NCBI GenBank assembly: GCA_963675595.2
Contig: CAXXLZ010000002.1
Span: 2,336,001-2,400,000, forward strand
Reading direction: 5' to 3'
DNA from: Thermodesulfobacteriota bacterium
Lineage (GTDB): Bacteria; Desulfobacterota; Desulfarculia; JACQYL01
DNA length: 64,000 bases
Shown: positions 30,136-42,453 of the stretch, piece after piece
How positions within the stretch are numbered: position 1 is the stretch's first letter
Layout: each line of letters begins with the position of its first letter
Program-made: the position numbers and the translations under genes
The notes under the pieces: generated by a model
Database searches by the model: none
Told to the model about the DNA's origin: nothing
The model's input: only the letters and a program-made list of their open reading frames with translations

Positions 30136-30180
30136 ATACCGCCGGCCCTTCAGGGCCGTCGTTCCTTGCAGGGAGATGAA

Positions 30181-31116
30181 ATGAGCCACAAGGTACTGAT
30201 CAGCCTGGATGATTCACTCCAGTCCAGTCGCGTGGTGGATTACGCCGTGCGCATTTCCAGCGTCATCCAAGACATGGAATACACCCTCATGAACGTTCAA
30301 CCCCCGATTCCTCCTTTTATCACGGATGAAGCCAAAAAGGACAGCAAGGCCTATCAGGAGTTGGCGCGTCTCAAACAACGAAACGAGACCGCGGCGAACG
30401 CCGTTTTGGAGAAATGCAAAACCCGGATGGCCGATCGGGGAGTCCCGGAAAGTCGCATCGAGTTTCTCACAAGACCAAGAAGGTTGGGGGTCGCCCAGGA
30501 TATTCTCGACACGGCTGAAAAGGGCATGTACGACGCACTACTTCTTGGACGGCGAGGCCTCACCAAAGCCCAACAACTTTTCATCGGCAGCGTGTCCAAC
30601 AAAATTATCAACAACGCCTCCGTGATACCCGTCTGGATTATCGACGGAGAAATCACTTCGATGAAAATTCTCGTGGCGGTGGACGGCTCCTCCGCTTCCC
30701 TTCGCGCCGTGGACCACCTGACCTACATGGTCGGCGGCAACCCCGACGTGACCATCACTTTTCTCCATGTAACGCCCAAGCTCGCCGACTACTGCTCCAT
30801 CGACCTCGGTGAGGAGGACGGTACCCAGACCCTTGAAGCCGCCCTCTTAGAGGAAGATGCCAAATGCATCGACGCCTTTCATGCAAAGGCCATGTCGATG
30901 ATCAAAGAGGCCGGTATTGCGGAAGACCAAGTCGCCTTTAAGACAAAAACCACCACCATGGGGGTTGCAAAAGCCGTGCGGGAGGAAGCCAGACGCGGTA
31001 AGTACGGAACCGTGGTGATCGGACGGAAAGGACAGAGCAACTCGTTTTTCATGGGCAGCGTGTCCAACAAGCTCATCCAGATGATGACCAACTGCGCTCT
31101 CTGGGTGACCGTGTAG
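30181..31116 (+). CDS. Tandem universal stress protein
   Basis: Two Usp domains, each with GRxG...GSVSNK. Confidence 0.88.
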   Translation: MSHKVLISLDDSLQSSRVVDYAVRISSVIQDMEYTLMNVQPPIPPFITDEAKKDSKAYQELARLKQRNETAANAVLEKCKTRMADRGVPESRIEFLTRPRRLGVAQDILDTAEKGMYDALLLGRRGLTKAQQLFIGSVSNKIINNASVIPVWIIDGEITSMKILVAVDGSSASLRAVDHLTYMVGGNPDVTITFLHVTPKLADYCSIDLGEEDGTQTLEAALLEEDAKCIDAFHAKAMSMIKEAGIAEDQVAFKTKTTTMGVAKAVREEARRGKYGTVVIGRKGQSNSFFMGSVSNKLIQMMTNCALWVTV

Positions 31117-31269
31117 CGTCTTCCCCGACGGGCGGGCTGGGGACCCGACGCTACACACTTCAGTACCCCGGTTATCTCCGGCATACGCTGCAGCAAAAAG
31201 GCCGGGCGCATCCTCCATTGAGAGAGCGCGCCCGGCCTTTTTCCACTCAGTATTTTCGAGGACAACGAA

Positions 31270-31848
31270 TCACGCGACCCGTTGGGTCTCCATCCGACCG
31301 ATGTAATCCTCCACCAGCACGTTGTGGTCTTTGTCTTTCAATTTTTTCCTGATCTTATCCTCGGCGATGTCCACCGCCATGTCGACCAGTTCTTCCACCA
31401 ACTCGTGGTGCGCCCTTCGAATTTCGAATTCGGCACTCGCTTTGGCCGCCGTAATCAACCGCTCAGCGGTTTCTTCGGCGTCCGCAAGGATTCGCTTCTT
31501 CTGAGCTTCCCCTTGTGCCTGGATAATATCCTTCAGTTCACGAATCTTTTCGTCGGCTTTGGAAACCTCTTCGAGGATTTCCCGGTATTCCGCATCGGCC
31601 TCATCACGGAAGGTTTCCGCCTTCTTGATATCCGAATCGATCTCCTCGGTCCTACCGGCCAGGAAATTGGTCAAAGGGGCTTTGCCGAATTTGACGATCA
31701 CGAATACCAGGATGAGGAAGTTGCCGATCTTCCAGGCGAGATCCCACTCGTCCCGGTATTCCCAAGTTCCCCCGTCCTCGGCGACGGCGAGAGTCGCCGC
31801 GGCGAAGAATCCGAAGGCAACGGGTGCGGCTGCTTTAATCCATCTCAT
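31270..31848 (-). CDS. atpF: ATP synthase Fo subunit b
   Basis: NFLILVFVIVKFGKAP TM followed by charged coiled coil. Confidence 0.85.
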   Translation of the reverse strand: MRWIKAAAPVAFGFFAAATLAVAEDGGTWEYRDEWDLAWKIGNFLILVFVIVKFGKAPLTNFLAGRTEEIDSDIKKAETFRDEADAEYREILEEVSKADEKIRELKDIIQAQGEAQKKRILADAEETAERLITAAKASAEFEIRRAHHELVEELVDMAVDIAEDKIRKKLKDKDHNVLVEDYIGRMETQRVA

Positions 31849-32273
31849 TTCAGCTCCCTGCCGACTACCTTCCGGGTCAGGTAAAGTGAAAGAGCCGTCG
31901 CCTGCTTCTTGAACTCTCTTCGAGCCGAATTCGCCTGACCGGCAATTTCGTCTCGAATGGCGGAGACGATCTTGGCTTCTTCCTCTTTGGTCTGGATGAC
32001 CAGATGCTCCGCACGCGACGTCGCTTCCGCCATCATCCTTTCCCGTTCTTTGTTTGCCTCCCGCTTTGCGTCCTCAAGCTGCCCATTAAACTCGACGAGA
32101 AGGCGCTCTCCCTTATCGGCAAATTCGGATGCATCCTTCCGCGCCTGATCGATCCTTTCCTTCCGCTCCCTCACTGTTTCCAGCACCGGCCGAAACAGGA
32201 GCCGGTTCAGGATGAACATGAGCAGAAGGAAGTTGATCAACTGCAGCGCCAGGGTGGCGTTTATGCTGATCAC
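31845..32273 (-). CDS. atpF: ATP synthase Fo subunit b'
   Basis: INATLALQLINFLLLMFILNRLLFRP followed by coiled coil. Confidence 0.85.
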   Translation of the reverse strand: MISINATLALQLINFLLLMFILNRLLFRPVLETVRERKERIDQARKDASEFADKGERLLVEFNGQLEDAKREANKERERMMAEATSRAEHLVIQTKEEEAKIVSAIRDEIAGQANSARREFKKQATALSLYLTRKVVGRELK

Positions 32274-32306
32274 CTTTCAGACTCCGTATCTTTTGGGTTT
32301 CGCTTT

Positions 32307-32561
32307 CTAGACCACAAAAATCAGAAGCAACGCTACGACCAGGGAGTAAATACCCGTGGATTCCGAAACAGCCTGCCCGACGAGCATCGTTCTGGTCAGC
32401 AAACCGGCTTCCTGGGGATTTCTGCCGATGGCCTCACAAGCCTTACCCGCGGCAAAACCTTCACCCACGCCGGGTCCAATGGCGCCGAGTCCCATCGCGA
32501 TACCCGCCCCCAACAGAGCCGCCGCCCGTACGATGTCCGCTCCTTCGATTCCTACTGCCAT
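32307..32561 (-). CDS. atpE: ATP synthase Fo subunit c, single hairpin, Na+-type signature
   Basis: GxGxGxG stretch GAIGPGVGEG, RNP loop, QAVSESTGIY. Confidence 0.92.
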   Translation of the reverse strand: MAVGIEGADIVRAAALLGAGIAMGLGAIGPGVGEGFAAGKACEAIGRNPQEAGLLTRTMLVGQAVSESTGIYSLVVALLLIFVV

Positions 32562-32655
32562 TTGATCATCCTCCGTAATGTTTATTTTGATCGCCTCTAT
32601 TCGTTCAATTCTTTGTATGTGCCGACGGATGCAACGCCCTTCAAGCCCGCCACAT

Positions 32656-33630
32656 TTAGACCACGAAAATCAGGACGAGAGCTATCACCATTGCGTAAAT
32701 CGCGGTGGATTGGGCCACCGCCTGACCCACCAGCATGGTTCGAGTCAACACACCGGTGGCTTCCGAACTTCGACTGACCCAGGTTACGGCTCCCTCGGCG
32801 GTCATCCCGTTCCCGATCCCGGGTCCGATACCTCCGAATCCCATGCAAAGCCCTGCGGACAGGAGAGCGAAGGACGCGGTGAGCGTGGAAGACTCGGGGA
32901 ACGTCTTGAACATCAGAATGAAGCTCACCAACAGACCGAAAATAGCCGGAGTTTGGGCCACGGCCTGTCCCACAAGCATGGCCGTTGTCGTGGCTCCCAG
33001 AGTGAGAGGTTGCCTGGCGATTCCCTGCGTGCTGGCTCCGGCCGCCATTCCGCCTCCGACGCCGGACCCGATGGCCGCCAACCCCGTGGAGAACCCCGCG
33101 CCCAGCAGCGCCGCCCAGGTAGGAGAGACGGGGGCTTTGCTGAAGTCCAGGAACATGAGCATAAAGGCCACCACCATGGAAAAAATGGCGGGCGTCTGGC
33201 AGACCGCGGAGCCGATGAGCATGTTGGTTGTGAGGGAGCCCGCCATTTTGGGCTGCCGCGCCAATCCTTCGCATGCACCGGCGGCGGGAAATCCCGAACC
33301 TACGCCCGAACCGATGGCTCCGAACCCCATGCACGCCCCCGCGCCGATGAGCGCCGCGGATTTGGCCGTCGTCTCACCGATATGATGATCCAGAAAGATC
33401 AGCAAAACAGCGATCACCAGTGCGAAAATACCCGCGGACTCGGCCACGGCCTGGCCGACCAACATGTTTCGCACAACATCGCTCGATGCTTGGGGACGTC
33501 TGGCGCTGGCGCGCGATGCAAAACCCGCACAGAATCCTTCCCCTACCGCAGCGCCGATGGCTCCGAGCCCGATGGCGATCCCGGCGCCGAGATACGCCGA
33601 ACCCATAACATAAATATGTGCCGTCTCCAC
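32656..33630 (-). CDS. atpE: Quadruplicated ATP synthase c subunit (4 hairpins, 8 TM)
   Basis: Four c-like repeats; loops RRP/RQP/RQP/RSS; ion-site segments AES / CQT / AQT / AQS. Confidence 0.88.
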   Translation of the reverse strand: METAHIYVMGSAYLGAGIAIGLGAIGAAVGEGFCAGFASRASARRPQASSDVVRNMLVGQAVAESAGIFALVIAVLLIFLDHHIGETTAKSAALIGAGACMGFGAIGSGVGSGFPAAGACEGLARQPKMAGSLTTNMLIGSAVCQTPAIFSMVVAFMLMFLDFSKAPVSPTWAALLGAGFSTGLAAIGSGVGGGMAAGASTQGIARQPLTLGATTTAMLVGQAVAQTPAIFGLLVSFILMFKTFPESSTLTASFALLSAGLCMGFGGIGPGIGNGMTAEGAVTWVSRSSEATGVLTRTMLVGQAVAQSTAIYAMVIALVLIFVV

Positions 33631-33648
33631 TTGGGCTATATCTCCCTT

Positions 33649-34323
33649 CTACTTAATCTGAACCGAAATATACACAAGGGTCAGCATGGTGAAAACAAAA
33701 GCCTGGATGGTTCCGACAAACAGTCCGAAAAACGCGAACAGGAAAGGCGGAATCACCAATTGCCAGACGAGGTGGGATACGACCAGAATGATGATGGACC
33801 CGCCCATGATGTTTCCATACAGACGGAAGGAGATGGAAACGACCTTGGCGATCTCACCAATCACGTTCAAAGGAGCCATGAAGAACATCGGCTGGCAATA
33901 CTCGGAGAGATACTGCTTCAAGCCTTTGGCCTTGATTCCGGAATAATGGGCGATGATAAACCCCAGCAGCCCCATGCTGAGAGGCGTATTCAAATCTTTG
34001 GTGGGCTCCGAAAGAAAAGGAATGATCCCGATCCAGTTACACAAGAGCAGAAACATGAAAAGCGCGCAAATCAAGGGAAAGTATTTTCGATAGTCCTTGA
34101 TTTCCAATGCGTCGCGAGTCAAGTCGTCGAAGGTCACGATAAAGAGCTCGGCGACATTCTGCAAACCTCCGGGAACATGGGCCAACTTTCGCGATGCGAG
34201 CACCGCGAACAAAATCAATACCCCCATGACGATCCACGTCATGATCAGGGTTTCTACGTTGAACACCAAATTGTAGTCCCCGAGCGTGAGCGTGTACTGC
34301 CAGACATTGGTTAATTCATCCAT
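33649..34323 (-). CDS. atpB: ATP synthase Fo subunit a
   Basis: PTKDLN, SISFRLYGNI with essential Arg, IQAFVFTMLT. Confidence 0.92.
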   Translation of the reverse strand: MDELTNVWQYTLTLGDYNLVFNVETLIMTWIVMGVLILFAVLASRKLAHVPGGLQNVAELFIVTFDDLTRDALEIKDYRKYFPLICALFMFLLLCNWIGIIPFLSEPTKDLNTPLSMGLLGFIIAHYSGIKAKGLKQYLSEYCQPMFFMAPLNVIGEIAKVVSISFRLYGNIMGGSIIILVVSHLVWQLVIPPFLFAFFGLFVGTIQAFVFTMLTLVYISVQIK

Positions 34324-34347
34324 TGTGCCTTCCCTGCCTTGTGGTCG

Positions 34348-34770
34348 TCAATATGTGATTCCCCTCCGAAAAAAATGAGCCCATCCAACATAATACAGCA
34401 GGATCGAAATCTGTGCATTGAAGACGCCGACACATGTGGCCACGATGCTGATCTGATCCGATCTGACGGCTATGATTAAAGGGAATGCCAGAAGAACGTA
34501 TCGGAGCAAAATGGAGAAAAAGGCTTCCACCCCCGCGCGTTTCGAACTCATACCCAACCGTCGAACGATCCCGCGTTTCATCAACGCGAAATTGGCCAGG
34601 CTGAAAACGCTCCCCAACACAAATCCTTTGGCCTCGCCGAAACGGGACATGGCAAGACATCCGAGCACCACCACCGCGCAGAGCACGGCTGCGGTTTTTG
34701 CCACGTTCACCACCGGGTCGTCCGCCCGAGGCTCATTCTCCGTTTTTCCGGTCTCGCTCGGTACCTTCAT
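34348..34770 (-). CDS. atpI: ATP synthase protein I
   Basis: Four TM helices, position before atpB. Confidence 0.75.
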   Translation of the reverse strand: MKVPSETGKTENEPRADDPVVNVAKTAAVLCAVVVLGCLAMSRFGEAKGFVLGSVFSLANFALMKRGIVRRLGMSSKRAGVEAFFSILLRYVLLAFPLIIAVRSDQISIVATCVGVFNAQISILLYYVGWAHFFRRGITY

Positions 34771-34984
34771 CGAGAACCTCTCTGATCTGGCGATACACCG
34801 TGTAGGCCCCTCCGATGACACCAAGAATCAGAAAAACGGTAGTGAAGAGCCCTTTTACCCCGAGCCACTTGTCTAGATAGTAACCGATGGCAAAGCAAAA
34901 GAGCACACAACCGACCATGGTGAGACCCAACTGGGTAACCAGTGTGAGGTTCTCCATCATGGCCTTCCGATCCTGTTTTTTCAT
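34733..34984 (-). CDS. atpZ: AtpZ/AtpI-family Fo-associated protein
   Basis: QLGLTM...GYYLDKWLG...FLILGVIGG. Confidence 0.8.
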   Translation of the reverse strand: MKKQDRKAMMENLTLVTQLGLTMVGCVLFCFAIGYYLDKWLGVKGLFTTVFLILGVIGGAYTVYRQIREVLDEGTERDRKNGE

Positions 34985-35025
34985 AGAGCACGCGAATCGC
35001 TTGTGATTATTTTCTCGCAGTCGGG

Positions 35026-35055
35026 ACACTAATGCCTTTTGGATGCTTTTGTCAA
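35026..35055 (-). promoter_or_regulatory. Candidate sigma70 promoter of the Fo operon
   Basis: TTGACA-N18-TAGTGT about 40 nt upstream of atpZ. Confidence 0.4.
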
Positions 35056-35489
35056 GAGAAAACCTTGACGCCCATCGTGCCCAAATCAAAACATTCGGTA
35101 TCTTAAGACAATCTGCAAAGATCCGGAGCACACGGCTGTTTTCTCACGCGGCAGCCCCCTACCCCCGCCGGGACGACCGTCGGCCGCAACCGGCGATCAT
35201 GCAGCATAGCGCTCTATTATCGATTGTGCAAGCGGCTCAACAATGCATCAAAAAAAAGCTCCGGGAGCCGGGCCCTCGTCTCCAGGGGAGGAACGGACCC
35301 TCTCTGATTCGGCACGGCCCTACCCCCCTCCGGCCCCAAGAGGAAACCCCTTTCCATCTGCGGTTCAAGTATGCCATAGTTGTGAATCAAAGTACGAGCG
35401 GACCCGATGAACGAAGCCGCCTACCGCGAATCACCCACGAATCGGGATATCCCGTTCATTGGTCCCCGTCGGCGTTTTGGAGACTAGAC

Positions 35490-36650
35490 ATGCCTCAGCC
35501 CATAGATCAAGAAGAACTTTCGGTTCTTCTCGTCGATGATGAAGATGAATTCCGACAGCCTTTATTCAAACGCCTTTCCAGGCGGGGATTCCATGTCCGG
35601 GAGGCTTGCAACGGACGTGAAGCGCTGCTGGCTCTTGAAAAAGAACCCGCCGGCGTGGTGGTCATGGACGTCATGATGCCCGTTCTGGATGGAATAGAGG
35701 CTCTCAAAAGAATCAAACAGGAATTCCACGAAACCGAGGTCATCCTTCTCACCGGCTTTTCCAATACCGATCAGGGCGTATCCGGAATCAAAGCCGGAGC
35801 CTTTGACTATCTGTCCAAGCCCATTGAATTCGAACACCTCTTGGGCAAGATACGTCAAGCCGGCGACAAGCTGCTCCGACAAGAGGAAAAACGACGCGAA
35901 CTCGAGTTCCGCTCGCGAATGGAGCAGCAAATGATCGCAGCGGAACGTTTGGCCGCAGTGGGTACCATGGCCGCCGGAATCGCCCACGAAATCAACAACC
36001 CTCTCTCCATCATCGCGGAATCGGCCGGATGGATGAACACCCTTCTGGCCAAACCCGAGTTGGCCTCCATCCCTCACCGGGACGGATTAAAACTCGCTCT
36101 GGACAAGATCGAAAAGAGCGTCTCCCGCACCCGCACCATTACGCACCAACTACTGGGTTTCGTGCGCAAGGACGATTCCGTCGTTAAGGAAAGCAGCCTG
36201 TCCGAGCTCATTCAGGAAGTCATCGACCTCATGGGGACTCATGCCGGGGATTTAGGGGTGGTTCTCGAAAAAGACGTCGATACCCGGGCGGATACGATCT
36301 GGACCGATCCGTCGCAACTTCGCCAAGTGTTGGTGAATCTGGTATCCAACGCCATACAGGCGTCCTCGCGCGACGGTAAGGTGCTCATCCGTCTGGAGGA
36401 CGCACCCGAAGAGATCATCCTGTCGGTGAAGGATCAGGGCGAGGGCATTCCCAAAGAGAACTTGTGTCGAATCTTCGAACCGTTCTTCACCACCAAACCC
36501 CCGGGGAAAGGCACGGGGTTGGGACTTTCCATCAGTCGAAGTCTGGTGGAGAAGCTCGGAGGTAAGATCGACGTGGAGAGTCAACTCGGAAAAGGAAGCA
36601 CCTTCTCGGTGCGGCTTCCCAAGTTGAACCCCGTCGCAGACCGCTCATGA
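35490..36650 (+). CDS. Hybrid receiver-histidine kinase (REC-HisKA-HATPase)
   Basis: LLVDDE, MDVMMP, AHEINNPL, NLVSNA, FFTTK, GTGLGL. Confidence 0.9.
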   Translation: MPQPIDQEELSVLLVDDEDEFRQPLFKRLSRRGFHVREACNGREALLALEKEPAGVVVMDVMMPVLDGIEALKRIKQEFHETEVILLTGFSNTDQGVSGIKAGAFDYLSKPIEFEHLLGKIRQAGDKLLRQEEKRRELEFRSRMEQQMIAAERLAAVGTMAAGIAHEINNPLSIIAESAGWMNTLLAKPELASIPHRDGLKLALDKIEKSVSRTRTITHQLLGFVRKDDSVVKESSLSELIQEVIDLMGTHAGDLGVVLEKDVDTRADTIWTDPSQLRQVLVNLVSNAIQASSRDGKVLIRLEDAPEEIILSVKDQGEGIPKENLCRIFEPFFTTKPPGKGTGLGLSISRSLVEKLGGKIDVESQLGKGSTFSVRLPKLNPVADRS

Positions 36651-36702
36651 CCGGATTCACGGCTCCGCTTCCGGCTTCGATCTCCAAACCGATCGCGGGC
36701 GG

Positions 36703-38085
36703 CTACTTTCGGATCACGGCCTCCAAGGAGATATTGTATTTCTTCATCCTATTCCACACCGTCATGCGGTGAACTCCAAGAATTTCGGCCGCCTTGGTCT
36801 TGCTTCCGCCGCTTAGACGCAACGCCTCGATGAGAGCCCTTCGCTCATCCCCGGACTCCGCATCGCCCGCGACGGAACCCTCCTTGACTTCCGGCTCCCC
36901 ACCGGCCTGCTGCATCGCCGGCAGGTGCTCAAGTTGTATGGAACCGGACTCCGCCACCACAAAAGCGTATTCGAGAGCGCTCCTCAGTTCCCTGACGTTC
37001 CCCGGCCAATTATAATCCATGAAGAATCTCATCACTTCGGGACTCGTCCCATTAATCCGCTTCTGATTACGTCTGCGCAGGTCCGCGGTGAAATGTCCCA
37101 CCAACAAGGGAATATCGTCTTTCCGCTCCCGCAAAGGGGGTAAATGAATGGGAATCACGTTGATACGGAAGAAAAGGTCTTCCCGAAACCGGCCTTCCGA
37201 TACCAACCGGGAAAGATTCCGGTTGGTCGCCGAAATGACCCGAACATCCACGTTCACCGGAGCGTGGTCTCCCACGCGTTCAAAACGCTTGGTCTCCAGC
37301 ACCCGCAACAGTTTGACCTGAGTGGCGGAGGGAATATCTCCGATTTCATCCAGGAAGATATCTCCCCCGTGCGCAGCTTCGAATCGCCCCACCCGGTGAC
37401 GATAGGCTCCGGTGAACGCCCCCTTCACGTGACCGAACAATTCGCTTTCCAGGAGAGACTCGTTCAAGGCCGCACAGTTGAATTGGATGAAGGGCCCTTC
37501 CTTCCTCCGCCCAAGGCTGTGAATCGCATGGGCCACCAGCTCCTTGCCCGTTCCGCTCTCACCATAGATCACCACCGGAGCGTCGCTTTGACCGGCTTTT
37601 TCGATGATCTGAAAAATCTTGCGCATGGCCCTACTCTTGCCCACCATGCCTTGAAAACCCGTGGCCGGTACTAGTAGACGCGAAAGTTCCTGAATCTTCT
37701 GATCGCGCCGATCCATTTCCGACAAGTCGATGAAGGTTTCCAGCGCGCCGATCACCTCGCCGTTTTCGTCCTGCAGCAGGCAGGCGTTTTTCAACGCGGC
37801 CACGAGACTTCCGTTCTTCTTCCCGAGCAAACACCGCTTGTCCTTCACGCCTCCCATCTCGAACAAGGCACACCAGTTCTTTCCGCCTTCGGAGCGGGTC
37901 AGATCGCAGGCGTCGCACTTCAGCACCGTGCAGGGAGCCCCCAACAACTCCTCTTTGGTAAATCCCGTCATCCTTTCGAAGGCCGTGTTCACCACAAGGA
38001 TTCTCCCTTCCGGCCCCACTACCATCAAACCGTCGCTCACCGCATTCAGAATGGTCTTCCAATGAACTCCGAAATCATTTGTCAT
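36703..38085 (-). CDS. PAS-AAA+-Fis sigma54-dependent activator
   Basis: GESGTGKE, GAFTGA, WPGNVREL, C-terminal HTH; Cys-rich PAS. Confidence 0.92.
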   Translation of the reverse strand: MTNDFGVHWKTILNAVSDGLMVVGPEGRILVVNTAFERMTGFTKEELLGAPCTVLKCDACDLTRSEGGKNWCALFEMGGVKDKRCLLGKKNGSLVAALKNACLLQDENGEVIGALETFIDLSEMDRRDQKIQELSRLLVPATGFQGMVGKSRAMRKIFQIIEKAGQSDAPVVIYGESGTGKELVAHAIHSLGRRKEGPFIQFNCAALNESLLESELFGHVKGAFTGAYRHRVGRFEAAHGGDIFLDEIGDIPSATQVKLLRVLETKRFERVGDHAPVNVDVRVISATNRNLSRLVSEGRFREDLFFRINVIPIHLPPLRERKDDIPLLVGHFTADLRRRNQKRINGTSPEVMRFFMDYNWPGNVRELRSALEYAFVVAESGSIQLEHLPAMQQAGGEPEVKEGSVAGDAESGDERRALIEALRLSGGSKTKAAEILGVHRMTVWNRMKKYNISLEAVIRK

Positions 38086-38241
38086 GCATCAATTCCTCGG
38101 CACGAATTTATCACATGATTAATCATCTTTTTGTCATATGCAAACATCGACACGGACCCTCCCCGGAAGACCTCGATACAGCACCTCTAATTTCTATTTT
38201 AATATCAATAAGATAGATCACGCAATCGCTTTCCAAGCCAT

Positions 38242-38256
38242 TGGCACGGAACTTGT
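38242..38256 (+). promoter_or_regulatory. Sigma54 -24/-12 promoter, with an IHF-like site near 38203
   Basis: TGGCAC-GGAAC-TTGT next to a divergent activator; TATCAATAAGATA upstream. Confidence 0.65.
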
Positions 38257-38389
38257 TAAAGCATTCTCACACCACGGTGAACCGTCCCGTCGTAGGGACA
38301 AGGGAAGAAACGAAACCGATTTCAGCCCTTCATCCGAAACTTATTTTGTTTATCAGATTCAACCGGATTGGCGCAACAAGGAGGCGACC

Positions 38390-38722
38390 ATGAAAAAGAT
38401 TCTGTCTCTGATTCTGGGCATTGTCCTGTTCCTAACGTCCGTCGGATTGGTATTCGCTTACGGCGACGGCAATTACCGCAAGGGCAAATACCTTTTCCGC
38501 AAGAATTGCCGCGCCTGCCATACGGAGGCGGGACAGGCCAAGGAGTTGAGCCCTCTGAGCAAAACCATGGCCGAATGGGAACAGGCGTTCAAACCCGAAA
38601 CCGCGGCCGGCTATCCCTGCAAGGATGAATGGGCGAAGCTTTCCGAAAGCGACCTCAACGACATCTACACCTATTTATATAAGCATGCCGCCGACTCTGC
38701 GACTCCGGCCAAGTGTAAGTAA
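38390..38722 (+). CDS. Periplasmic monoheme cytochrome c
   Basis: AAGGAGG RBS, signal peptide, CRACH. Confidence 0.85.
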   Translation: MKKILSLILGIVLFLTSVGLVFAYGDGNYRKGKYLFRKNCRACHTEAGQAKELSPLSKTMAEWEQAFKPETAAGYPCKDEWAKLSESDLNDIYTYLYKHAADSATPAKCK

Positions 38723-38790
38723 GCTCCGTTACCGCTTTTCAATGAAACCATCGGAAGTTCAACCATTCCATGAACCTGAGGAAGACGACC

Positions 38791-40980
38791 ATGGGGACGA
38801 ATCAACCGCTCACACTTTCCCGCAGAAACTTCCTTAAAGTCGCGGGCGCCGCGGCTGCGGCCGGTACCGGGTTGATTCGGCCGAATTCAGCGAATTCGGC
38901 GACGCCCGAGGCGCCGAGTTTCGAGAGCAAATACTCGGTGTGCGACATGTGTTTCAACAAATGCAGTCTCATCGCCCGAGTGCGAAACGGGGTCGTGGAG
39001 AAGCTCGACCCCAACCCCAAATTCCACAAGTCCCGAGGGATGCTCTGCGCCCGCGGCAACGCCGGAGTCAGGCAGCTCTACGATCCGGACCGCCTGAAAT
39101 CTCCCCTTCTCCGAAAGGGAGAACGGGGCGAGGGAAAGTGGCAAAGGCTCACCTGGGACCAGGCTCTCGACCATGCCGCGGAACAGCTGCTCAAGATCGG
39201 TGAACAATACACGCGTTGCGGAGTCATGTTCATGGCCGGCGCGGACATGCAGTCCACTTTTGTCCATCGGTTCGCGGACGTCTACGGTTCGTACAATAAG
39301 CTGTCACATGAGTCCATGTGCCTGATCGCCGGAACACGGGGTTTTTTGGACACCTTCGGTGAAGTGCCCATTCCCGACATGCAGTACACGAAATACGTGG
39401 TCATGTCCGGAGCGAACCGCTTCGAAGCTTTGGTCACTCCCGACAGCATGGACCTTATGAAAGCCATGGCCGGCGGCTGCAAGCTGGTGGTGCTGGACCC
39501 CCGTTATACCAAAACGGCGGCCCTGGCCCATGAATACTTCCCCGTACGTCCCGGCACGGATATGGCCGTCATGCTGGCTTTTGCTCACGTGCTGATCACT
39601 GAGGGCCTGTACGATCGGGAATTCGTGGAACAGAAATGCTACGGCATCGAACAACTCGCCGAACACGTCAAGCAGTACTCCCCCGAATGGGCCGAGAAGG
39701 AATGCGAAATCCCGGCAGAGGCCATTCGCCGTATTGCCCGGGAAATGGCGGCCGCGGCTCCGCAAGCCATGATCTATCCCGGCCGTCGCAGCTCGAATTA
39801 CCGCAATTCCACTCAAATCCGACGGGCCTACGCCATTGTCAACGCGCTCCTGGGCAACTGGGATCGCCCCGGAGGTCTTACGGCGGCGAGGATGGTGGGG
39901 CTGAAGAGCCCCGGCTACGACGCACCGTTCTATGAATCCAATCCCTTCGAGCGCATCGACCACGGCGTGGCCAAATTGATGTTCGAGGAAGAAGGGTCTT
40001 TAAAAATCGCCCGCGACGCCGTGCTCCGAGAGGAGCCCTATCCGGTCAAGGGTTTCTTCACCTACAAGACCAACCCTATGCAAACGGCCGCCAACCGTTC
40101 CAAGACCATTGAAATGATCCGTAAACTGGATTTCATGTGCACGGTGGATATCGTCATGAGCGATACGGCGTGGATGGCGGACCTGGTGCTGCCGAGTCAG
40201 GCCGCTTTCGAACGCACGGACCCCTGTTCCGCCCAACAAGGTTCCTCGGCCTGCGCCTGTGTGGTCATGCGCGACCCGGTGGTGTCCGACCCCCTGTTTG
40301 AGTCCAAGCCGGTGTTCTGGATGATGAAGGAACTGGCCGACAGGCTGGACCTGGGCGAATATTTCGATCTTTCCATCGAAGAATACCGGAAAGAACAACT
40401 GCGGGACCTGCCCGGAGCCATGGACGCCTTGATCAACGACGGCGTTTACTATAACCCGAGCAAGCTCTACGGTGTTTACGAAGGCAGGATATTCAAAACC
40501 AAGACCCACAAGATCGAGCTGTTCAACGAAACCTATCAGCAAATGGGCTTGGACCCCCTGCCGGTGTACGAATCTCCGACCGCCCCACCGAAGAACCAAT
40601 TCCGCATGGTTGTCGGCAGAACGGCGACCATCACCCAAAGCAGCAGCCAGAACAACAGCCTGCTCCAGGAATTCGAGCCCGAAAACGATCTCTGGATTCA
40701 CCCCGACTCCGCCGCCGCCCTGGGCATTCACGACGGGGACCCTGTAACCGTTTCCGGCAAGGTCGGCGAGCAACGCATCCGTGCGCGCGTCACCCGACGC
40801 ACACGTCCGGATACGGTCTACATGCACACGGGCTACGGCGTGTTGAGCAAAGGCTTGAGCCGGTTGCAGGGTAAGGGCGCCTGCATCGCCCAAGTGCTCG
40901 AAGACGGTCTCGACGAGATCTCCGGCAACATGGCCATGCACGAGACCTTTGTGAAGATAACCAAGGAAAAGAAATCATGA
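38791..40980 (+). CDS. Molybdopterin oxidoreductase catalytic subunit, PhsA/PsrA-like (thiosulfate/polysulfide reductase family)
   Basis: Tat SRRNFLK; CDMCFNKC...LCARG Fe-S; SHESMC putative Cys ligand; DLVLP; C-terminal molydopterin-binding domain. Confidence 0.85.
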   Translation: MGTNQPLTLSRRNFLKVAGAAAAAGTGLIRPNSANSATPEAPSFESKYSVCDMCFNKCSLIARVRNGVVEKLDPNPKFHKSRGMLCARGNAGVRQLYDPDRLKSPLLRKGERGEGKWQRLTWDQALDHAAEQLLKIGEQYTRCGVMFMAGADMQSTFVHRFADVYGSYNKLSHESMCLIAGTRGFLDTFGEVPIPDMQYTKYVVMSGANRFEALVTPDSMDLMKAMAGGCKLVVLDPRYTKTAALAHEYFPVRPGTDMAVMLAFAHVLITEGLYDREFVEQKCYGIEQLAEHVKQYSPEWAEKECEIPAEAIRRIAREMAAAAPQAMIYPGRRSSNYRNSTQIRRAYAIVNALLGNWDRPGGLTAARMVGLKSPGYDAPFYESNPFERIDHGVAKLMFEEEGSLKIARDAVLREEPYPVKGFFTYKTNPMQTAANRSKTIEMIRKLDFMCTVDIVMSDTAWMADLVLPSQAAFERTDPCSAQQGSSACACVVMRDPVVSDPLFESKPVFWMMKELADRLDLGEYFDLSIEEYRKEQLRDLPGAMDALINDGVYYNPSKLYGVYEGRIFKTKTHKIELFNETYQQMGLDPLPVYESPTAPPKNQFRMVVGRTATITQSSSQNNSLLQEFEPENDLWIHPDSAAALGIHDGDPVTVSGKVGEQRIRARVTRRTRPDTVYMHTGYGVLSKGLSRLQGKGACIAQVLEDGLDEISGNMAMHETFVKITKEKKS

Positions 40981-41726
40981 AGACGCAGCTGGCAATGGTA
41001 ATCGACGCATCCAGGTGCTGGGACTGCAAAGCCTGCATGGCCGCCTGCAAAACGGCCAACAAGGTCCCCGAAGGGCAGTGGCGGAACTGGATCAAGAGCG
41101 TGGACCTGGACCTGGTGGAGCCCGGAGGAGGGCGGCTGATCTTCCAGCCGGGCAACTGCATGCACTGCAGCGAGCCTCTTTGTATCAAGGCTTGCCCCAC
41201 GGGCGCCACCTATCGAAACGAAGCCGACGGCACCGTCCTCATCAATCGGGAACTTTGCATCGGCTGCGGGCAGTGCCTGCCGGCCTGCCCTTACGGCGCA
41301 AGATTCAGACACGCGGAACTCAGGGTCGCGGACAAATGCGACTTCTGCGCCGAACGCAGGGCCGCCGGCCTGGAGCCCGCCTGCGTAGCCACCTGCCCAA
41401 CCAAGGCGCGTGCCTTTGGAAATCTTGCAGATCCGGAGAGCGAAGTCGCCCGCCTGCTCAAACGGAATGAGTCCGTGCAACTGGTTCAGGCCAAAAGCCC
41501 GACCGACCCCAACATTCGTTATCTCGGAAATCCCGGACGGACCGATTGGCCCGTGGAGGCGCAAATGCCCTCGGCATTCGGGTTCTGGAAGAACGTGGCG
41601 GGCCCGGTGGTCAAGATCTTCGTCGGATTTTCCGCTTTGGGCTTCGGCGCCATGCTGGCCAAGCAACTTTTCCTCCCCGATCATCCCGAGGAAGACCGCC
41701 AACCTGAGGAGAAACGCCATGAATAA
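40977..41726 (+). CDS. 4Fe-4S electron-transfer subunit (PhsB/PsrB-like) with C-terminal anchor
   Basis: CWDCKACMAAC, CMHC..P.C...CP, CIGCGQC...CP, KCDFC. Confidence 0.9.
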   Translation: MKTQLAMVIDASRCWDCKACMAACKTANKVPEGQWRNWIKSVDLDLVEPGGGRLIFQPGNCMHCSEPLCIKACPTGATYRNEADGTVLINRELCIGCGQCLPACPYGARFRHAELRVADKCDFCAERRAAGLEPACVATCPTKARAFGNLADPESEVARLLKRNESVQLVQAKSPTDPNIRYLGNPGRTDWPVEAQMPSAFGFWKNVAGPVVKIFVGFSALGFGAMLAKQLFLPDHPEEDRQPEEKRHE

Positions 41727-42453
41727 CCGAATGATCCGACGTCACGGACCGGGGGGCATTTTCATCCACTGGTTCAACGCGGTTTGCTGGTTTTTCCTCC
41801 TGGCCACCGGTCTGGGTCTCATCAAGAACCCGGACCTTCAGCCCTTGGGCCCATGGTGGCCCAACTTCATGAACTCTTTGTTCGGCGGCGGGGAAACTCT
41901 TTTGGCCGTCCATTGGGGCACCGGCGCGGTCTGGGCTGGCATCTGGCTGATCTTCATCCTGGCGGGTCTGCTTCGATACACGGCCCCGTTTCTACGACAA
42001 ATCTTCTCCTACCACCTTTCCAGGGACCTGGAGTGGATGATCAAGAAGCCCTTTCAAATGATCCTGGGAACCAAAGCCATGGCCGCCCTGGTTCGCCCTT
42101 TGGGTTGGGATGGAAACATGCCCGAACAGGGATTCTACAACGTCGGGCAGAAAGCGGCCGCGGTCGCCATGGCGGCCGGAGGCCTTGTCCTTGTGATCAC
42201 AGGCGTCATCATGACCCTATCCAAGTACTTCCTTTCCCCGAATCAGGTCCCCATGGTTCAGTGGAGCATCACCATCCACTTCATCGCGGCCGGCCTCACT
42301 TTCGGAGTGCTTCTGATCCACATCTATATGGCGGCGGTAAGCCGTGAGGAAAGGCCTGCGTTCATTTCCATGTTTACCGGGACGGTTCCGGAAGATTACG
42401 CGGCCCACCACCACGGTCTTTGGTACGAAGAAGTCAAAAACAGCGGTAAGTAA
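41719..42453 (+). CDS. Cytochrome b membrane anchor (PhsC/FdnI-like)
   Basis: HWFNA, QGFYNVGQK, IHF...IHIYMA, SMFTG.V. Confidence 0.85.
   Translation: MNNRMIRRHGPGGIFIHWFNAVCWFFLLATGLGLIKNPDLQPLGPWWPNFMNSLFGGGETLLAVHWGTGAVWAGIWLIFILAGLLRYTAPFLRQIFSYHLSRDLEWMIKKPFQMILGTKAMAALVRPLGWDGNMPEQGFYNVGQKAAAVAMAAGGLVLVITGVIMTLSKYFLSPNQVPMVQWSITIHFIAAGLTFGVLLIHIYMAAVSREERPAFISMFTGTVPEDYAAHHHGLWYEEVKNSGK

Follow-up and report, generated by a model that had tools for sequence, protein, structure and literature searches.

A stretch of 64,000 nucleotides (hereafter the window) from a member of the Thermodesulfobacteriota (assembly GCA_963675595.2, contig CAXXLZ010000002.1, positions 2,336,001 to 2,400,000) contains a gene for an F-type ATP synthase c subunit in which four hairpins are joined in one polypeptide and only the first of them carries the glutamate that is predicted to bind the coupling ion. 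We refer to this four-hairpin c subunit as c4x, to multi-hairpin c subunits in general as cNx, and to the single-hairpin c gene and its product as single c. The multi-hairpin c subunits are a large and conserved family in sulfate-reducing bacteria, which is real, selected and widespread. The reading that we favor, and hold to be reasonably probable, is that c4x and single c would form a hybrid Na+ c-ring, in which the number of ions moved per turn and the Na+/ATP ratio would be lowered. The multi-hairpin family as a whole probably builds rotors that move fewer ions per ATP.

The c4x protein was matched in four stretches both by the family PF00137 (ATP-synt_C; E value 2.9e-53, 178.4 bits against a cut-off of 24) and by its best match among the NCBIfam models, that for the F0F1 subunit C (NF009999; 223.4 bits against a cut-off of 124). 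The repeats are 81 residues each, with a mutual identity of 36–50% and an identity of 46–60% to the adjoining single c. A carboxylate in the middle of helix 2, which is a feature of c subunits, is found only in hairpin 1, the residues in this column being E64, Q145, Q226 and Q307. The gene and its four hairpins are as follows:

32656..33630, minus strand: c4x, F-type c subunit of four hairpins, GTG start, 324 amino acids and stop
33388..33630, minus strand: hairpin 1 (residues 1–81), predicted to be the sole ion-binding hairpin, with helix-1 E31 and helix-2 E64-S65-A66..F69
33145..33387, minus strand: hairpin 2 (residues 82–162), predicted to be ion-blind, with a helix-1 Ser and Q145-T146-P147..F150
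32902..33144, minus strand: hairpin 3 (residues 163–243), predicted to be ion-blind, with a helix-1 Gly and Q226-T227-P228..F231
32659..32901, minus strand: hairpin 4 (residues 244–324), without a carboxylate (helix-1 N274, Q307) and with S308-T309..Y312 retained

A preliminary description of this DNA had reported four tandem F-type c repeats with Glu in the first and Gln in the other three. This is fully confirmed, and every one of the motif strings quoted in it (QAVAESAG, SAVCQTP, QAVAQTP, and QAVAQST) is found in the protein. Judged from these residues, c4x is a c-type protein in which three of the four units are not functional c units, and the S308-T309..Y312 of hairpin 4 may be ligands that serve the Glu of the following hairpin in the ring. 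The label of a V-type subunit K was rejected, because the respective models stayed well below their cut-offs (NF011483, 90.4 against 188; NF004913, 86.5 against 211) and the neighboring genes encode F-type a, b, and b′ subunits. The label of an N-ATPase subunit c was likewise rejected: the score of TIGR03322 (146.7 against 130.85) was reached only by summing the four units, the genome has its N-type operon elsewhere (L016), and the window is not of the atpDCQRBEFAG type, which is reportedly the order of N-ATPase operons.

The exchange of Glu for Gln is highly conserved. In 50 four-hairpin orthologs, the residues E64, Q145-T146-P147, Q226-T227-P228, Q307-S308-T309, and Y312 show no variation at all, and at least 90% of these sequences have E31. 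The ratio of nonsynonymous to synonymous substitutions (dN/dS) in c4x, determined by the Nei-Gojobori method from the 231 of 820 pairs with 0.1<dS<1.5, was 0.10 overall and 0.100, 0.125, 0.073, and 0.096 for hairpins 1–4, respectively. As these values are similarly low in all hairpins, purifying selection acts on the Gln hairpins just as it does on the Glu hairpin. The preliminary description had argued for selection rather than decay and had proposed that dN/dS and the E/Q patterns of homologs be determined. The intact frame, the invariant motifs and a dN/dS of about 0.10 in each hairpin bear out its argument, and the loss of Glu is conserved and not random, as 119 of the best 120 homologs have Glu first and Gln after.

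These 120 proteins are the best of 2315 homologs (E value ≤1e-3) that were identified by a word-indexed protein search among 8000 scored candidates. By hairpin pattern they comprise EQQQ (11), EQQQQ (67), EQQQE (18), EQQQQQ (20), EQQQQE (3), and QQEQQQ (1), and their lengths group at about 324, 405, and 485 amino acids. Where a source is named for them, it is Desulfobacterales, Desulfarculaceae, Desulfosalsimonas or Thermodesulfobacteriota; the annotated product is no more than “ATP synthase F0 subunit C.” When 1.84 billion cluster representatives were searched exhaustively, 1672 matches with E values ≤1e-3 were obtained, 85 of them ≤1e-30, with 2–14 hairpins per chain. In an even sample of the phylum (401 genomes, the window genome included), matches at ≤1e-30 were present in 41 genomes and in 33 of 255 genera, and hairpin counts of 3, 4, 5, and 6 occur among close relatives. 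What appeared to be two overlapping frames in one genus (g3) proved to be ordinary single-frame EQQQE genes. A second family of four-hairpin c subunits, about 320 amino acids long and with 25–32% identity to c4x (P0186–P0269), accounts for about 40 of the 150 representatives listed and reads Glu, Gln, Glu, Asp/Glu (e.g., Q-ETAL / S-QTPF / L-ETPF / S-DTSY). Giant c-type chains of 8–14 hairpins with Glu in nearly each of them were also observed (P0146, of 1139 amino acids, P0168, P0205, P0225, and P0232), and these resemble the type found in Methanopyrus kandleri (as described in excerpts of PMC2359735).

In the window, c4x is part of a module of seven genes on the minus strand in the order AtpZ-AtpI-a-c4x-c-b′-b, which is without delta and without F1 genes. 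The arrangement in other genomes was studied in the best 80 of 98 confirmed loci, which come from species-representative genomes including the complete genome of Desulfosarcina widdelii PP31 and were annotated with our own open reading frame (ORF) calls and hidden Markov model searches. The order AtpZ-AtpI-a-cNx-c-b′-b holds throughout these loci, so that the multi-hairpin gene lies between subunits a and b of an atp cluster in all of them as it does in the window, and no F1 genes were found within the flanks examined. At least one single c gene directly follows cNx in 79 of the 80 loci (two single c genes in two of them), and the remaining locus stops at the end of a contig. The single c gene of the window is as follows:

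32307..32561, minus strand: single-hairpin c subunit, 84 amino acids, PF00137 E value 1.8e-18

This protein has Glu in helix 1 and E-S-T..Y in helix 2 (E..ESTxxY), which is a full Na+ ligand set of the two-carboxylate type, and with a mean column identity of 90% across 38 orthologs it is the most conserved of the module. In 34 loci, with start sites from our own ORF calls, single c begins with ATG in every case and c4x in 27, and the mean Shine-Dalgarno match is 5.97 for single c and 5.03 for c4x. This difference is a weak hint that would fit a higher copy number of single c.

The hairpins from the 80 loci were compared at five positions each, viz. the helix-1 ligand, the carboxylate position of helix 2 (E), and E+1, E+2, and E+5. 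In this notation the pattern is E / E-S-A..F in first hairpins, S, A or G / Q-T-P..F in middle ones, N / Q-S-T..Y in last ones, and E / E-S-T..Y in single c. In a tree of 423 hairpins, the first, middle, and last hairpins formed one clade each, containing 79 of 80, 181 of 182, and 80 of 80 sequences with supports of 0.91, 1.00, and 0.93, respectively. The clade of last hairpins adjoins single c in this tree and contains both Gln and Glu forms. With regard to architecture, EQQQ is followed by one single c in 39 loci and by two in 2; EQQE (14 loci), EQQQE (12), EQQQQ (8), and EQEE (2) are each followed by a single c, and 3 loci are cut or partial. A Glu-type hairpin is thus fused in frame to Gln hairpins in 29 of the 80 loci, and since live and dead hairpins are in these cases part of one polypeptide, both are forced into one ring.

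A second line of evidence comes from the residues that neighboring hairpins contribute to one ion site. In solved Na+ rings, Glu65 and the helix-1 Gln/Glu are provided by one subunit, and the adjacent one gives Ser66, the Val63 O, Thr67, and Tyr70 (excerpts of PMC3692424). The residues Glu65A/Gln32A/Ser66B of I. tartaricus match Glu139/Gln110/Thr64 of E. hirae, and in the fused E. hirae subunit Glu139 and Gln110 are in the second hairpin and Thr64 is in the first (excerpts of PMC2359735). It follows from this correspondence that the donor of Ser/Thr/Tyr is the preceding hairpin, and Tyr is therefore expected in a hairpin only if the next hairpin has Glu. In the 80 loci, Tyr at E+5 was followed by a Glu hairpin in 30 instances and by a hairpin without Glu in none; Glu without a preceding Tyr was seen once and neither residue in 229 cases. 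The corresponding numbers for the 120 database proteins are 18, 0, 4, and 471. When the hairpins were counted in the reverse orientation, there was no link (3, 106, 78, and 73 in the 80 loci; 0, 138, 120, and 235 in the database proteins). The terminal hairpin always retains Tyr, which would be expected where a Glu hairpin comes first in the following subunit of the ring.

The structure of c4x was modeled with AlphaFold2. Without an alignment the model was poor, with a predicted local distance difference test score (pLDDT) of 54.9, and it was replaced by one based on an alignment of 50 orthologs, which has a pLDDT of 95.2, a predicted template modeling (TM) score of 0.91, and eight long transmembrane helices. 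In hairpins 2 and 3, the outer helix is broken precisely at Q145 and Q226, respectively. The closest solved chain, both by sequence (E value 1.3e-24) and as the best fold match in the PDB (root-mean-square deviation 1.4 Å over 162 columns, TM score 0.82 on the target), is the c1 subunit of Acetobacterium woodii (4BEM_J). The best TM score on the query is 0.47, and at most half of the model is covered by any solved chain. A complex of c4x with single c was predicted with a score of 0.71 (0.72, 0.71, and 0.67 in individual runs), the best control reaching 0.00; a score of 0.71 is attained by 58 of 80 solved complexes and by 2 of 110 mismatched pairs. The runs share at least 97% of their contacts and the pLDDT of the partner is at least 84. 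In this complex, single c lies on hairpin 4 (c4x residues 249–324), with c4x residues 305–310 and 312–313 in contact with residues 31, 33, 63–64, and 67 of single c, and these modeled contacts match the orientation derived from the neighbor rule. The heteromeric ring, which the preliminary description had put forward as a candidate, is thus indirectly supported by the fusions, the covariation of neighboring hairpins, the synteny and the complex model.

The A. woodii c1 subunit (4BEM chain J), which is like the c1 of Clostridium aceticum, also provides the closest known parallel, as the preliminary description had suggested. It likewise consists of fused F-type hairpins with Glu first and Gln after, reading E-T-S..F in hairpin 1 and Q-T-T..Y in hairpin 2, and it obeys the same neighbor rule as c4x. 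In the atp cluster that encodes it, which includes atpI, c1 of this E-then-Q design precedes a single-hairpin c gene whose product has a Na+ motif (PMC7911925). A single c of this kind directly downstream, which is a feature of the c1 systems, is present in the window as well. However, c1 has only two hairpins (four helices, about 18 kDa, “V-type-like”) and one blind site, in contrast to the four hairpins, eight helices and three blind sites of c4x and up to five blind sites in its relatives. The middle hairpins of c4x also have an invariant Q-T-P..F signature of their own without the helix-1 Gln/Glu, and its helix 1 carries Glu (the two-carboxylate type) where the c1 type has Gln. The gene order, which had been described as similar to that of A. 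woodii, is so only in part, in that a single c adjoins the multi-hairpin c; the module of the window, from a different phylum, differs in being without delta and F1 genes and in being a third Fo set, beside two others.

Other known c subunits share individual features with these proteins. The c subunit of Fusobacterium nucleatum (c11 ring) has Glu in both helix 1 and helix 2, as in single c and hairpin 1, and its Na+ ligand set matches that of the single c of the window, including Ser, Thr, and Tyr at E+1, E+2, and E+5 (excerpts of PMC3692424), although this ring is homomeric, is made of single hairpins and has a site at each interface, unlike the hybrid ring proposed here. In V/A-type proteolipids (Enterococcus hirae NtpK, the eukaryotic V-ATPase c and E. 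callanderi c), the hairpin was duplicated and a carboxylate then lost, with fewer ions per turn, as here (excerpts of PMC2359735 and PMC9171764). The site is again completed by the preceding hairpin (excerpts of PMC2359735), and chains of this type rank second and below among the fold matches of c4x. In these proteolipids, however, the blind hairpins alternate with live ones and the sites are evenly spaced, whereas those of c4x are consecutive and its operon is F-type. More than two hairpins per chain are known from archaeal c subunits (the triplication of Methanocaldococcus jannaschii and the 13 hairpins of M. kandleri), but these belong to A-type enzymes, and each hairpin of M. kandleri has a site where all but one are blind in c4x (excerpts of PMC2359735).

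Whether the module has an F1 of its own was addressed by an inventory of ATPase genes. The window genome (6.79 Mb, three contigs) contains three further ATPase loci:

C2:~4.222 Mb (L014): I-a-c set
C2:~3.867 Mb (L015): b′-b-delta-alpha-gamma-beta-epsilon
C2:~1917000-1924100 (L016 3305-10099), minus strand: beta-epsilon-(two small ORFs)-a-c-b-alpha-gamma

The gene order of the last operon is one that we take to be that of an N-ATPase, and its c subunit reads E..ESTxxY. Whole-genome family searches detected three a subunits, two gamma subunits and one full delta. With the L016 operon counted, there are three Fo sets for two F1 sets, and the Fo of the window must therefore share an F1; it may dock onto an F1 encoded elsewhere, of either the F-type or the N-type. 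The subunit a of the window is 36% identical (78/218) to the other F-type a of the genome. The other F-type c (L014 5894-6271, C2:~4221900) has a long hydrophobic N-terminal extension and the motif Q..ESLxxY. Such extended “other” c subunits of carriers (that of L014, L102 5784-6125, and L107 3140-3499) are encoded by ORFs of 113–125 amino acids and are without Thr at E+2.

In other carriers the module is joined to F1 genes. The genes AtpZ-(AtpI)-a-cNx-c-b′-b-delta-alpha-gamma-beta-epsilon are contiguous in G021 (a complete genome, with a three-hairpin c), G380 (c4x), G043 (c4x), and G194 (three hairpins), and in all four genomes the module sits in the only complete F1Fo operon. G386, whose genome is about 95% complete, has one run of twelve genes, delta-alpha-gamma-beta-epsilon-AtpZ-AtpI-a-c4x-c-b′-b; the one further a/c pair of this genome belongs to an N-ATPase-like operon, and no F-type Fo besides the module was found there. 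In G314 (L106, G314:C14, 3703-14696), the module has its own b′-b and is followed after about 1 kb by a second b′-b pair and then by delta to epsilon, an arrangement that looks intermediate between the joined operon and the split one of the window genome. Among 40 sampled carriers, all have at least two a subunits, and exactly one gamma scores above 300 bits in 38 (in one other the gamma is split at a contig end, and in one none was found). Extra gammas in 7 carrier genomes score 175–206 bits, and no carrier has two high-scoring gammas. Two a/c-ring modules per F-type F1 are thus the rule in the sampled carriers.

Based upon these observations, we propose that c4x would be a rotor subunit of a Na+-coupled F-type Fo, in which its four hairpins would form a pre-joined c-ring arc and the adjoining single c would fill the remainder, giving a hybrid ring as in A. 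woodii. Hairpin 1 alone would hold the Na+-binding Glu pair, its site being completed by the Ser/Thr/Tyr of the preceding hairpin; hairpins 2–4, with Gln, would carry no ion, so that c4x would add three ion-blind positions; and hairpin 4, which retains Ser-Thr..Tyr, would complete the site of the next subunit's Glu. With the ligands of hairpin 4 and the Glu pair of hairpin 1, c4x would thus fit into a Na+ ring with neither neighboring site damaged. If ring size remained constant, the ions per turn would fall and Na+/ATP would fall with them. By way of illustration only, a ring of 11 hairpins that includes one c4x would contain 8 sites and move 2.7 Na+/ATP instead of 3.7. The Fo of the window would represent an alternative “gear” to the other a-c set of the genome. 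Conservation, motif logic, gene order and the ATPase inventory are observed directly, whereas we infer Na+ as the coupling ion as well as the co-assembly, the copy number, the lowered ratio and the sharing of an F1. We lean slightly toward a reversible enzyme that makes ATP at low phosphorylation potential, rather than one that only pumps, because the module lies in the only complete F1Fo operon in several genomes. A ring that keeps its size with fewer sites suits a low phosphorylation potential according to Litty and Müller, and the hybrid enzyme of A. woodii (nine single c and one c1) synthesizes ATP from about 90 mV (excerpts of PMC9171764).

Several points weigh against this interpretation. 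In an 11-hairpin ring, three consecutive blind hairpins would span about 130 degrees, which exceeds one 120-degree step of F1. To our knowledge, nothing shows an ion-driven rotor crossing such an arc in the synthesis direction, and A. woodii has only one blind position. A Glu hairpin follows T-P..F in one locus (L094) and in 4 database proteins, and the neighbor counts, which come from related sequences with few independent switches in the tree, are a consistency test and not a statistic. The score of the complex model may reflect likeness to a solved structure (4BEM), and such a model neither shows binding nor tests this particular copy. The same hybrid ring could act in one direction only, as an ATP-driven Na+ extrusion pump or a brake on synthesis, with ATP being made by the other a-c set. 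Three to five consecutive Gln hairpins are conserved, which in a ring of about 11 hairpins would make an arc that exceeds one F1 step, all 40 sampled carriers hold a second a subunit, and the genome studied here has a separate I-a-c set as well as b′-b genes beside its F1. By standard thermodynamics, a lower ion/ATP ratio also lets ATP hydrolysis build a steeper gradient, an argument made likewise for V-type c subunits (excerpts of PMC9171764). Nevertheless, the module has no F-type Fo found beside it in G386 and is part of the only complete F1Fo operon of G021, G043, G380, and G194, and both the A. woodii hybrid enzyme and that of E. callanderi with its V-type c synthesize ATP, with thresholds of about 90 mV (excerpts of PMC9171764). 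We therefore regard a purely one-way pump as unlikely, albeit deserving of serious consideration.

The remaining explanations appear considerably less probable. The ends of c4x are self-compatible, as the S-T..Y of hairpin 4 could complete the hairpin 1 Glu site of another copy, and a ring could in principle be formed by c4x alone (e.g., three copies giving 12 hairpins, 3 sites, and 1 Na+/ATP), with single c used elsewhere or as a minor filler. However, single c, the most conserved protein of the set, is adjacent in every case, its constant ATG start and slightly better Shine-Dalgarno match fit a higher copy number, the fusions attach a live hairpin to dead ones, and the 3, 4, 5, and 6 hairpins of close relatives would force very different ring sizes; a homo-oligomeric ring is accordingly judged very doubtful. 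Marginally more doubtful still is the idea that c4x serves mainly as an assembly seed or template together with AtpI, setting the size of the ring or nucleating it, the loss of sites being energetically meaningless. AtpI and AtpZ are always present in the module, and a pre-joined four-hairpin arc of fixed curvature, as in the model, could nucleate a ring. But a seed would not need the change of Glu to Gln, the invariant Q-T-P or the strict Tyr/Glu neighbor rule, and the design is kept in proteins with anywhere from 2 to 5 blind hairpins. That c4x is a decaying duplicate or an annotation artifact without function has almost no likelihood: the missing carboxylates are all that would speak for it, in the face of the intact frame, the low dN/dS, the invariant motifs and the synteny across many genera.

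A broader extension of the hybrid ring may also be considered, although we think it rather improbable at present. Many Desulfobacterota may run one F1 on two interchangeable motors, one of which would contain the ion-blind arc of 2–5 fused hairpins, and the installation of this Fo would switch the gear, and possibly the direction, of the enzyme to that of an ATP-driven Na+ pump. With at least three blind hairpins the arc would exceed the 120-degree step in a ring of about 11 hairpins, so that Na+ alone could not drive a full turn, and the pump would operate at about 2–2.7 Na+/ATP. If true, such regulation by rotor swapping would be a form that has not been described for F-type enzymes.

The preliminary description knew of no characterized bacterial F-type example, and our literature search likewise turned up no account of a bacterial F-type c subunit having three hairpins or more, although the review of hybrid rotors by Brandt and Müller (2015), which was outside that search, may list some. 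The only F-type ring with a blind position that we found described is that of A. woodii and close acetogens, with one blind hairpin. F-type rings are surveyed as being built for the most part from single hairpins, A. woodii being the exception, in excerpts of 10.64898/2026.10.01.756066, and the excerpted part of a paper from 2026 that deals with Desulfatiglandales mentions no more than “two to four atpE copies” (PMC13343851). Another survey discards c-subunit sequences longer than 250 amino acids, and c-sequence pipelines with this upper limit miss the multi-hairpin class (excerpts of 10.1101/2024.02.27.582367). The c4x family is a variant of the hybrid-rotor principle with a distinct Q-T-P class of middle hairpins, and it carries the A. 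woodii design to 2–5 consecutive blind hairpins. It is of high interest to bioenergetics, as the ion cost of ATP, which is a fundamental parameter for life at low energy, is determined by how many ion sites the c-ring has, and the carriers are widespread among the sulfate reducers that drive much of the marine turnover of carbon and sulfur. The questions that it raises concern the lowest Na+/ATP ratio of an F-type enzyme, the crossing of a long uncoupled arc by the motor and a change of gear through Fo exchange on a shared F1, and cultured carriers such as D. widdelii PP31 (module in L017) make them directly testable.

The other genes of the module in the window, and the gene that follows it, are listed below:

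33649..34323, minus strand: Fo subunit a, 224 amino acids, PF00119 E value 1.4e-54, with the conserved Arg in SFRLYGN
34348..34824, minus strand: AtpI-like protein, PF03899 E value 3.6e-09 over residues 43–134
34733..35131, minus strand: AtpZ or “ATPase gene 1” protein, PF09527 E value 5e-17 over residues 63–115
31845..32273, minus strand: Fo subunit b′, 142 amino acids, PF00430 E value 5.1e-16; the best NCBIfam match is the B′ model NF005607, under its cut-off
31270..31848, minus strand: Fo subunit b, 192 amino acids, the last gene of the module, PF00430 E value 1.8e-19, TIGR01144 69.3 bits (cut-off 65.5)
30166-31116, plus strand: tandem universal stress protein with two Usp domains, convergent and directly after subunit b

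The true starts of the AtpI-like and AtpZ-like proteins are probably inside these ORFs, as their orthologs are about 127–138 and 78–95 amino acids long, respectively. A scan of 30900-35700 for promoters and terminators yielded nothing usable (4 promoter-like and 7 terminator-like sites, where 2.1 and 6.2, respectively, would be expected). Of the 12 sequencing runs from 4 studies that are listed for window 31270-35131, none is recorded as RNA. A Usp-like ORF (L014 10599-11129) also lies close to the other I-a-c locus. In window 35043-38085, directly upstream of the atp module, the plus strand encodes a hybrid response-regulator/histidine kinase and the minus strand a PAS sigma-54 activator. They are followed, in window 38138-42453 on the plus strand, by genes for a c-type cytochrome, a molybdopterin oxidoreductase (736 amino acids) with a twin-arginine translocation signal, a 4Fe-4S dicluster protein and a cytochrome b561-like membrane protein, a cluster that encodes a periplasmic molybdoenzyme respiratory complex.

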